1,826 nt of DNA from Naegleria gruberi (Eukaryota). Positions 1 through 1,033 of the stretch are shown in pieces. The stretch lies in the NCBI GenBank assembly GCA_000004985.1, contig GG739323.1. The stretch is one strand, 5' to 3'. The notes under the pieces are model-generated. The model ran no database searches, was not told the DNA's origin, and was given only the letters and a program-made list of their open reading frames with translations. Numbering within the stretch: the stretch's first letter is position 1; the number at the start of each line of letters is the position of its first letter. Made by a program: the position numbers and the translations under genes.

Positions 1-589
1 TAAATCTTGGTGCATGGAATATTTCCTCCAGAAACGATAGCTTGCATTGAAATCAAAGCAAAATCGACAACTGCCTGATCGAATAGAGTTTCAGATGGAT
101 CATTACGAATTCTCATAAATCTCTTGACACCTTTTTGAGGATTTTTAGCTAATTTTTGTAAACGTTCTTCCAATGGAACAATATTAATAACTTTTCCATT
201 TAAAACTTCAGCAATTTCCAAACTTTGAATAAGTAAACGTTCGTATGGAATCATAAATCTATTGAAAGTAAATTTGAATTGGTCAATTACATCCAAATCT
301 CTAATCTTACTCATTTCATTGTAAAGATATGAAAGATCAGAACTTTCAGATAAGAATGACTCGCTCTCCATCACTGCAACATGAACTTTTCTATCTGCGT
401 CTGTACCATTCACTTGAGAATACCACTTTTTCAATCTAGGATCAGCCATCATTCCAATCTTTACAGTCATCAAAGTAATATTCGATACAGTTGGAGAATT
501 TGAAAGGGATTCCATCAGCTCTACATTCGGACGAATATGGCCTGGAAATGGTAATGACAATATCAAAATATTCTTCTCATCACAATAAG
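1..589 (-). CDS. Exon 2, 3'-partial and continuing left of the window, of a secreted or membrane UDP-glycosyltransferase (UGT/GT1 family, N-terminal substrate-binding domain)
   Basis: Minus-strand frame with codons at 5-3, 8-6 and so on is open for the whole span 3..599, with no TTA/CTA/TCA in that plus frame. The translation reads AYCDEKNILILSLPFPGHIRPNVELMESLSNSPTVSNITLMTVKIGMMADPRLKKWYSQVNGTDADRKVHVAVMESESFLSESSDLSYLYNEMSKIRDLDVIDQFKFTFNRFMIPYERLLIQSLEIAEVLNGKVINIVPLEERLQKLAKNPQKGVKRFMRIRNDPSETLFDQAVVDFALISMQAIVSGGNIPCTKI. The segments 'ILILSLPFPGH' and 'FDQAVVD...NIP' resemble conserved UGT N-domain motifs (compare 'ILVYSP..SH' and 'FDVLLAD...NIP'), recalled from memory rather than searched. 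Codon usage (AGA/CGT, GGA, CCA) fits nematode coding sequence. Confidence 0.7.
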
Positions 590-643
590 CTAATTTAATT
601 TAATTAATTTAATTAATTAATATTTAAATAAAATTTATCGTAC
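590..643 (-). other. 54-nt intron, minus strand, GT..AG, consisting of an A/T-rich (TTAAT)n-like tract
   Basis: Minus-strand donor 'caag|gtacgataaatttt' at 644|643 and acceptor 'aaattag|CTTATTGTG' at 590|589. The length of 54 nt is typical of short nematode introns. In the unspliced frame the interval contains a minus-strand in-frame stop (602-600), which is consistent with an intron. Confidence 0.5.
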
Positions 644-740
644 CTTGATGAGAGGAGAATAAAATAGTAGTAACAAGGATGAATAGAATGCAAAATATTA
701 AAGGATTGCTGCTTCGGAAGAGGAAACGATGATTCATCAT
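644..740 (-). CDS. Exon 1 of the same gene: start codon plus N-terminal signal peptide/TM (MMNHRFLFRSSNPLIFCILFILVTTILFSSHQ)
   Basis: ATG at 740-738, with a second at 737-735. It is the first ATG after an in-frame TAA at 773-771. The exon is 97 nt (32 codons plus 1 nt) and ends at a donor AAG|GTACGA. Splicing to 589 restores exactly the frame of the long downstream ORF (G+CT gives Ala). It encodes a hydrophobic stretch typical of a signal peptide, as expected for ER-lumenal UGTs. Confidence 0.55.
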
Positions 741-1002: not shown

Positions 1003-1033
1003 TGTAGGGACCATGGTCTAGTGGTAGAAACAC
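1003..1033 (+). pseudogene. tRNA-like 5'-half fragment (D-arm resembling tRNA-Glu: ccATGGTCTAGTGGtAG); not a complete tRNA
   Basis: The 12-15-mer 'atggtctagtggtag' matches the conserved D-stem/loop of eukaryotic tRNA-Glu from memory. No anticodon arm, T-arm (GGTTCGA) or acceptor pairing follows. The sequence runs straight into array A instead. Confidence 0.3.

Follow-up and report, generated by a model that had tools for sequence, protein, structure and literature searches.

A tRNA-Pro-type gene of Naegleria gruberi probably split in its D-loop by a 787-bp, repeat-rich insert

Here, we analyzed a 1,826-bp stretch of DNA from Naegleria gruberi (contig GG739323.1 of assembly GCA_000004985.1; the whole stretch is called the window below), in which two short tRNA-like pieces flank an AT-rich segment that contains minisatellite repeats. 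The reading that we favor, to which we give a probability of roughly 60%, is that the two pieces belong to one tRNA-Pro-type gene that was split in its D-loop by a 787-bp insert lacking terminal inverted repeats (TIRs), with a target-site duplication of 5–8 bp. We infer the insertion event, and its kind, from features that can be read off directly: the two strings, a direct repeat, their collinear match to a tRNA, and the absence of a B box, a cloverleaf and TIRs. A single insertion is the most economical account of this arrangement. The insertion of mobile or foreign DNA into a tRNA gene is a kind of event that is already known, and the case described here is most likely ordinary mobile-DNA damage and not a tRNA-derived short interspersed nuclear element (SINE). 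An earlier note on this DNA had taken the left piece for the D-arm of a tRNA-Glu and the right one for a tRNA-Pro-like fragment, and had proposed that they represent either a SINE or relics of tRNA genes disrupted by a repeat element, in a Caenorhabditis-like host. The host is N. gruberi, and it is the second proposal that partly survives: disruption by a repeat element fits the sequence, but the target appears to have been one tRNA-Pro-type gene and not a Glu gene plus a Pro gene.

Both strings that had drawn attention to the region were confirmed at their positions, ccATGGTCTAGTGGtAGaa (also given as ccatggtctagtggtagaa) at 1011–1029 and tTAGTGGTATGATT (also given as ttagtggtatgatt) at 1813–1826. 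For comparison, metagenome contigs were scanned for the 16-mer TGGTCTAGTGGTAGAA (1014–1029), which yielded at least 120 loci; ARAGORN found 186 distinct tRNAs in the fetched loci, from which those carrying the Gly 16-mer were set aside, leaving a library of 133. On either strand of the window, tRNA matches of at least 11 nt to this library occurred only at 1011–1029 and 1814–1826. The two pieces match the same library tRNA-Pro sequences on the plus strand and are collinear, covering tRNA positions 8–20 and then 13–25. On the left, the 13-mer TGGTCTAGTGGTA (1014–1026) is identical to positions 8–20 of metagenome tRNA-Pro(AGG/CGG), and a tRNA-Pro hidden Markov model (HMM) run with nhmmer matches 1014–1027. 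On the right, in keeping with the likeness to tRNA-Pro that had been noted there, the 13-mer TAGTGGTATGATT (1814–1826) has 13/13 identity to tRNA-Pro positions 13–25, and its nhmmer match covers the same positions of the HMM.

The putative 5′ piece of the gene spans 1007–1026 on the plus strand (GGGACCATGGTCTAGTGGTA, tRNA nt 1–21) and consists of an acceptor 5′ strand, GGGACCA (1007–1013), U8-G9 (1014–1015), and the 5′ strand of the D-stem with the D-loop, GTCTAGTGGTA (1016–1026). Its GC content is 55%, compared with 30% for the AT-rich window as a whole. The A box, TGGTCTAGTGG (1014–1024, plus strand; nt 8–19, similar to TRGCNNAGTGG), is intact and identical to that of real tRNA-Pro, tRNA-Gly, and tRNA-Glu genes. 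A specific tRNA-Glu identity was rejected on two grounds: at the place of TCC in Glu the window reads GGG, and the D-arm fits Gly and Pro better, with a perfect 16-nt match to the D-arm of tRNA-Gly(GCC) of which the first 13 nt are equally those of tRNA-Pro.

The two pieces overlap in an 8-bp direct repeat, TAGTGGTA, which would represent the target-site duplication. Its left copy lies at 1019–1026 (plus strand; tRNA nt 13–21) and its right copy at 1814–1821; these are the only two occurrences in the window, both on the plus strand, against 0.01 expected, and a count of two was reached in 0 of 200 shuffles. Past the shared 8-mer, the left copy runs into GAAAC, which is repeat DNA, while the right copy runs into TGATT (1822–1826), the exact next bases of tRNA-Pro (nt 22–26), before the plus-strand piece at 1814–1826 is cut by the end of the contig at base 1826. 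Excision of 1027–1821 rebuilds GGGACCATGGTCTAGTGGTATGATT, corresponding to nt 1–26 of eukaryotic tRNA-Pro, with 21/25 identity to tRNA-Pro(AGG/CGG), 18 of the positions being contiguous. In agreement with this, the tRNA-Pro HMM gave two insignificant nhmmer matches in the intact window (E = 0.074 and 2.4) and one match, over HMM positions 7–25, once 1027–1821 had been excised (E = 0.0031). Although the apparent repeat is 8 bp long, a duplication of anywhere from 5 to 8 bp is possible.

Neither piece is informative alone, since a tRNA match of at least 13 nt to the 133-tRNA library was found in 10.7% of dinucleotide shuffles. Together, however, the two pieces are not chance-like. We defined a split configuration as two matches to the same tRNA on the same strand, where the second lies downstream of the first and carries on its tRNA match with at least 0 nt of overlap. 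With both pieces at least 13 nt long, this configuration arose in 1 of 100,000 shuffles; for summed piece lengths of at least 26, 24, and 22 nt the frequencies were 4e-5, 7e-4, and 8e-3, respectively. These piece-length statistics replaced a union-length statistic (at least 18), which had given 1.1% and was too permissive because it accepted two adjacent 10-mers. The lesson is that two snippets, each at chance level, become informative only as halves of one gene.

A competing explanation, less probable but still serious, is that no insertion into a tRNA gene took place. In that case the left piece would be a chance match or a lone 5′ relic (~16–23 nt) of a tRNA with an AGAA D-stem, for example tRNA-Gly(GCC), and the right 13-mer would be the A/T-rich tail of a minisatellite unit (unit C, described below) that happens to resemble tRNA-Pro. 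The 16-mer TGGTCTAGTGGTAGAA indeed matches the D-arm of eukaryotic tRNA-Gly(GCC), a widespread tRNA, at 16/16 positions and occupies nt 8–23 there. Most of the metagenome loci with the 16-mer (at least 120) are tRNA-Gly(GCC) genes, and the plant tRNA-Gly used in CRISPR arrays of alternating tRNA and guide RNA carries it as well (PMC6037947). Additionally, roughly a quarter of the metagenome contexts listed for it are not tRNAs, a point in favor of chance. The likeness to Gly does not extend to either side of the 16-mer: the left flank is 27% and the right flank 17% identical to tRNA-Gly, and the 90 nt downstream gave a Smith-Waterman score of 13 against tRNA-Gly, below the shuffled null of 15.4. 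The start of the acceptor strand also differs. Five of the seven library tRNA-Pro sequences begin with GGC, while none of 41 tRNA-Gly(GCC) sequences begins with GG, so that the GG start of the left piece fits Pro and is wrong for Gly(GCC). The Gly-like match is 13 shared bases plus GAA, the first three bases of the insert. GAA was assigned to the repeat unit on a gapped alignment of units A, B, and C, in which the 4-nt gap in A was placed by eye and the units start with GAAAC (A), GAAAC (B), and GTAAC (C). A tRNA-Gly(GCC) relic was accordingly down-weighted as a candidate, given the lack of likeness beyond the 16-mer, the wrong acceptor start, and the GAA common to the starts of units B and C; a tempting match of 16/16 comes down to 13 real bases and three borrowed from the insert. 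Against an origin by chance there is also the pairing itself: the only tRNA matches of at least 11 nt in the window fall on the same tRNA, on the same strand and in the right order, with an 8-nt overlap (1e-5 at 13 nt each), and TGATT is precisely the continuation that tRNA-Pro calls for.

Several observations nevertheless weigh against a split tRNA-Pro gene, and some of them favor chance or a lone relic. Each piece is, as stated, at chance level singly, and the left one matches not only tRNA-Gly(GCC) at 16/16 but also a bacterial-type tRNA-Ala(CGC) starting GGGCCTA at 21/23. The tails of units A, B, and C all read AAAA[AT]TAG, so the "TAG" of the right repeat may belong to the insert; this would account for part of the right match and leave an unexplained right piece of 10 nt, for which the chance is ~3e-3. 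A conservative joint probability of this size would be met by chance in a scan of thousands of windows. The E-value of the rebuilt sequence (0.0031) is modest, and the evidence amounts to 25 nt, the decisive 3′ part of the gene (anticodon, B box, and the acceptor 3′ strand TGGTCCC) being expected past base 1826, outside the contig. The tRNA-Pro sequences that were matched come from metagenomes and not from the host. As to the insert, its A-tail is only five A's long, and it contains neither a transposase nor a reverse transcriptase. No second copy was found in viral contigs, in the 120 metagenome loci, or by comparison of six-frame array peptides with predicted proteins, so that its mobility is putative. 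Finally, no homologue of the Dada transposons, with which the insert is compared below, was found in Naegleria: a profile of two Dada transposases (PMC3706591, Dataset S1) matched Perkinsus proteins only, in a word-limited search of low sensitivity.

The perfect AGAA-type 16-mer on the left and the TGATT type on the right would also be expected if two different tRNA genes (Gly- or Pro(UGG)-type on the left, Pro on the right) had become joined to an element, whether through recombination, one-ended transposition, or a join made in assembly at the D-loop that they share. Such a history would suit the window, which is a tiny contig without a placement, and it recalls Dada-tL, whose copies often lie next to pieces of different tRNA genes (PMC3706591). 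We nevertheless consider it quite improbable: it needs more events than one insertion, GAA is explained by the unit start, and the GG start misfits Gly(GCC).

A tRNA-derived SINE has a head that is related to a tRNA and carries both an A and a B box, followed by a body and by a tail that is either A-rich or derived from a long interspersed nuclear element (LINE). Read in this way, the window would hold an RNA polymerase III (Pol III) retroposon with a head at 1007–1029 (5′ sequence GGGACCATGGTCTAGTGGTAGAAACAC), a body formed by the 16-bp array and an A-run as its tail, the right snippet being the head of a neighboring copy. The resemblance includes a tRNA-like stretch with an intact A box (1014–1024) at the left edge, a repeat body, the short A5–A9 runs that end each unit, a flanking direct repeat, and the lack of TIRs. 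Of the two Pol III boxes wanted in a SINE head, however, only the A box that the earlier note had seen in part is present. No B box (GGTTCRANTCC with up to two mismatches) occurs in the window, where 2.06 would be expected by chance. The rest of the cloverleaf is missing as well: ARAGORN found no tRNA gene in the window, Rfam at E ≤ 10 gave no match to RF00005, neither for the whole window nor for 960–1140, and no similarity to a tRNA 3′ half was found anywhere in the window. At E ≤ 10 over 4227 families, the Rfam cutoff corresponds to about E ≤ 0.002 per family, and the weakest matches listed score ~11 bits. This was the covariance-model check that had been named beforehand, and the idea of a tRNA head fails it. 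The fold of 1007–1070, a stretch that a Pol III transcript would include, is no better than that of shuffles (z = +0.47), and TTTT at 1066–1069 would stop Pol III after ~60 nt. The tRNA-like stretch on the left is only 20 nt long before similarity ends, and units B and C, on the alignment with a 4-nt gap placed by eye in A, carry unrelated sequence in its place and lack a head. The right snippet is not a second head either, as it departs from the left piece after 8 nt and follows tRNA-Pro. Since the direct repeat lies inside the tRNA-like sequence, that sequence would be the target and not part of the element. Taken together, these results make a tRNA-derived SINE highly improbable. Metagenome elements with the same D-arm do exist, and they differ from the window in keeping their B box: one that has the 16-mer is tRNA-like and was not called by ARAGORN (L001:42-120), and another stands in a similar context on the minus strand (L070:88-164). 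A third metagenome locus (L028:8761-8830) contains a 5′-truncated tRNA-Gly relic at 8773.

The insert itself (1027–1813, 787 bp, plus strand) is AT-rich, is bounded by the two copies of TAGTGGTA, and starts with GAAACACTTTCTC and ends with CCCTTTCATAAAAAT. It has no open reading frame (ORF) of at least 80 amino acids, and no TIRs at any offset, the best scoring below 11/20. Subterminal inverted repeats are likewise absent from the outer ~130 nt on both sides; the sole shared inverted word of at least 7 nt, the 8-mer AAATTTGA, sits 134–138 nt in from the ends. Three homologous minisatellite blocks, all in the same (plus) orientation, make up much of its length, each with six or seven repeats of 15–16 bp (CAATGAATCCCTTCTT / ACGGATCCCTT) and a run of five to nine A's. 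Unit A (1027–1169; Tandem Repeats Finder (TRF) intervals 1027–1061, 1055–1125, and 1061–1115; family D1) has the head GAAAC..ACTTTCTCAATGAA (also GAAAC..ACTTTCTC) and about six 16-bp units with a consensus close to CAATGAATCCCTTCTT / AACGGATCCCTT, and it ends in an A7 run followed by ATGTATAAAAATAGAA. Unit B (1170–1312; TRF 1176–1263, 1187–1267, and 1239–1286), in tandem with A, consists of the head GAAACTATCACATCC and a 16/15-bp array, after which an A9 run leads into TGTAAAATTAGAAGGGATTT. An AT-rich core of 384 bp (1313–1696), in which ORFs do not exceed 41 amino acids, separates B from C; it showed no recognizable coding or RNA feature, only sub-threshold Rfam noise. Unit C (1697–1813; TRF 1720–1792; family D2), at the right end, has the head GTAACTAACACATTCTCAATGAA (also GTAACTAACACATTCTC), a 15-bp array of ATCCCTTCTTCACGG, and the tail CATAAAAAT, which directly abuts the right copy of TAGTGGTA. 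All three units were compared in alignments A1 and A3. Their homology can start at G1027, which directly follows the left repeat copy, if the 4-nt gap placed by eye in A is allowed; MAFFT aligns the starts without a gap, at 7/12 identity.

Additional searches with the rebuilt tRNA and the minisatellite gave no match in viral-contig scans, and the window sequence had none in full-text literature. Within the insert, we observed a few features of lesser weight. A repeat of unit A and B, TTCAATGAATCCCTTC (1087–1100 and 1250–1263), is similar to a tRNA T-arm (GTTCGAATCCCTTC) into which 3 nt have been inserted. One 10-mer, GAATCCCTTC, is identical to positions 56–65 of a library tRNA-Gly(TCC), but chance alone should yield about ten matches of this length per window, and the likeness was treated as noise. 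After array B, an inverted copy of the repeat unit, AGAAGGGATTT (1269–1280), can be paired by eye with AAATCCCTTTCT (1300–1310) into a hairpin whose loop is the A9 run. In the AT-rich core, a GC-rich island at 1633–1661 (AGAGACTACCCCTTCCGCAA) is followed by T8 and, with its ...CCGCA and T-run, looks like the end of a Pol III transcription unit on the 3′ side, with no tRNA match beyond 9-mers.

Among known elements, a close parallel is the Dada superfamily of DNA transposons. These transposons target tRNA and small nuclear RNA genes, produce 6–7-bp duplications, lack TIRs, and have a hot spot at tRNA nt 8–13; Dada-tIA, -tIB, -tY, and -tG_PMar come from Perkinsus marinus, so that TIR-less elements with short duplications inside a tRNA A box have precedent, including in a protist (PMC3706591, PMC8869645). 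An apparent 8-bp duplication in Perkinsus, TAGCTCAG, was read as 6 bp plus 2 nt (PMC3706591). The insert is like Dada in its position in the A box of a tRNA gene (conditional here on the split-gene reading), in its lack of TIRs, in having a protist host, and in a duplication that starts with TAG (TAGCTC+AG and TAGTCT+AA in Perkinsus, TAGTGG+TA in the window); internally deleted, non-autonomous derivatives are also known for Dada. It differs in that the site lies at nt 13–21 instead of the hot spot at nt 8–13 and the apparent duplication is 8 bp (5–8 possible) instead of 6–7 bp. Unlike Dada, whose transposase is of the DDE type with a C/DxxH motif, it has no transposase and no 7–9-bp subterminal inverted repeats near its ends, and the minisatellite blocks of which it is made are not reported for Dada. 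We conclude that the insert resembles a Dada insertion in the way it works, and we do not file it as a member of that group. For Naegleria, the literature found records only Kolobok among DNA transposon superfamilies (PMC9587614). On a Perkinsus contig that encodes a transposase 99% identical to that of Dada-tG, the minus strand just downstream of the element's second ORF carries the 3′ half of a tRNA (GGGTTCGAGTCCC...; L121:3836-3870), which may mark a junction between element and target.

Short non-coding inserts flanked by an 8-bp direct repeat, as found here, also recall the cut-and-paste elements of the hAT and P types, whose target-site duplication is 8 bp. The hAT target consensus is nTnnnnAn, which the repeat TAGTGGTA does not fit, and, unlike hAT elements, the insert lacks TIRs, no offset giving one of 11/20 or better. 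Another system that invites comparison is Entamoeba histolytica, where tRNA genes form arrays with intergenic short tandem repeats. PMC2888827 mentions these arrays. Both organisms are amoeboid protists in which tRNA genes or gene pieces lie beside AT-rich spacers with tandem repeats of 8–16 bp; in Entamoeba, however, the repeats separate tRNA genes that are themselves intact, whereas the window has a split tRNA with an 8-bp duplication and no intact tRNA.

If the favored reading of a single split tRNA-Pro gene is correct, the history of the locus can be sketched as follows. A tRNA-Pro-type gene of N. gruberi, situated ~266 bp upstream of a protein-coding gene and divergent from it, would have been the target; such targets are plentiful, since 924 tDNAs have been reported for this organism (PMC2888827). 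A staggered cut in the D-loop would then have duplicated 5–8 bp of the target (TAGTGGTA, nt 13–21), leaving tRNA nt 1–21 (GGGACCATGGTCTAGTGGTA) on the left, with the gene resuming at nt 13 on the right (TAGTGGTATGATT) and running off the contig. The insert would be non-autonomous, composed of three minisatellite blocks in the same orientation and an AT-rich core, with an A-rich tail beside the right repeat. We favor its arrival either by target-primed retroposition in the plus orientation or as a DNA transposon like Dada, which targets tRNA genes and lacks TIRs. The 5–8-bp repeat, the lack of TIRs, and an A-rich 3′ end that adjoins the duplication are compatible with target-primed retroposition, with the reservation that the tail has only five A's and that no partner LINE or other copies are known. 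With its A box ~800 bp from any B box and T-runs within 50 nt, the split gene should be dead, to judge from its sequence.

A bolder proposal, which we consider unlikely on present evidence, is that the insert is one copy of an undescribed non-autonomous family of Naegleria (Heterolobosea) that lacks TIRs, bears minisatellites, and is specific to the A-box/D-loop region of tRNA genes, either as a remote relative of Dada whose target has shifted (to nt 13–21) or as a new target-specific retroposon. The 924 tDNAs of N. gruberi, an unusually large number, would offer such a family its insertion sites. Should the gene indeed be split, a mobile insertion would have knocked out a tRNA gene in a free-living heterolobosean, a clear-cut example from a group whose transposable elements are poorly catalogued, and the repeat-rich insert would count as a candidate tRNA-targeting element family. 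Elements that insert specifically into multicopy RNA genes attract interest both for their "safe-harbour" strategy and as tools for targeted integration, and the case becomes more interesting only if the insert represents such a tRNA-targeting family in Naegleria. If there was no split, the arrangement arose by coincidence within AT-rich intergenic DNA and has no further significance.

A few further structures were seen around the left junction. A perfect 10-bp inverted repeat pairs the upstream flank (980–989, GAAAGTGTTT) with the first bases of the insert (1028–1037, AAACACTTTC), and the resulting hairpin (975–1042; z = −2.06, with 6 of 200 shuffles folding as well) is near chance level, yet sits astride the junction. 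Within 1008–1018, GGACCATGGTC is a near-perfect palindrome centered on an NcoI site, and GGGACCA, the putative acceptor 5′ strand, shows complementarity to the adjoining TGGTC(T), probably by coincidence. Another direct repeat, GGT[TA]GAAACACTT at 815 and 1023, was not used, as it is at chance level for an AT-rich window of 1.8 kb.

The tRNA-like site is intergenic and lies ~270 bp upstream of the inferred ATG (at 740) of the divergently oriented neighboring gene. The minus strand of 1–589 is an open exon of this gene, and its translation is 100% identical to a "predicted protein, partial" of N. gruberi (EFC35357.1 / XP_002668101.1). The protein (1–740, minus strand) had no homologue besides itself in a word-based search of 5.8 billion proteins and no Pfam family above threshold. 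Exact-protein look-ups with it and with three ORFs of the window returned no further encoding contig. Judging from these sequence comparisons, the neighboring protein is an orphan. The annotated partial protein begins at an internal methionine (MESLSN...), and upstream of it there is an apparent unannotated first exon at 740–644 (minus strand), MMNHRFLFRSSNPLIFCILFILVTTILFSSHQ, which is hydrophobic like a signal or membrane anchor; a 54-nt GT..AG intron at 643–590 (minus strand), with the splice assigned by eye, would link this exon in frame to exon 2.

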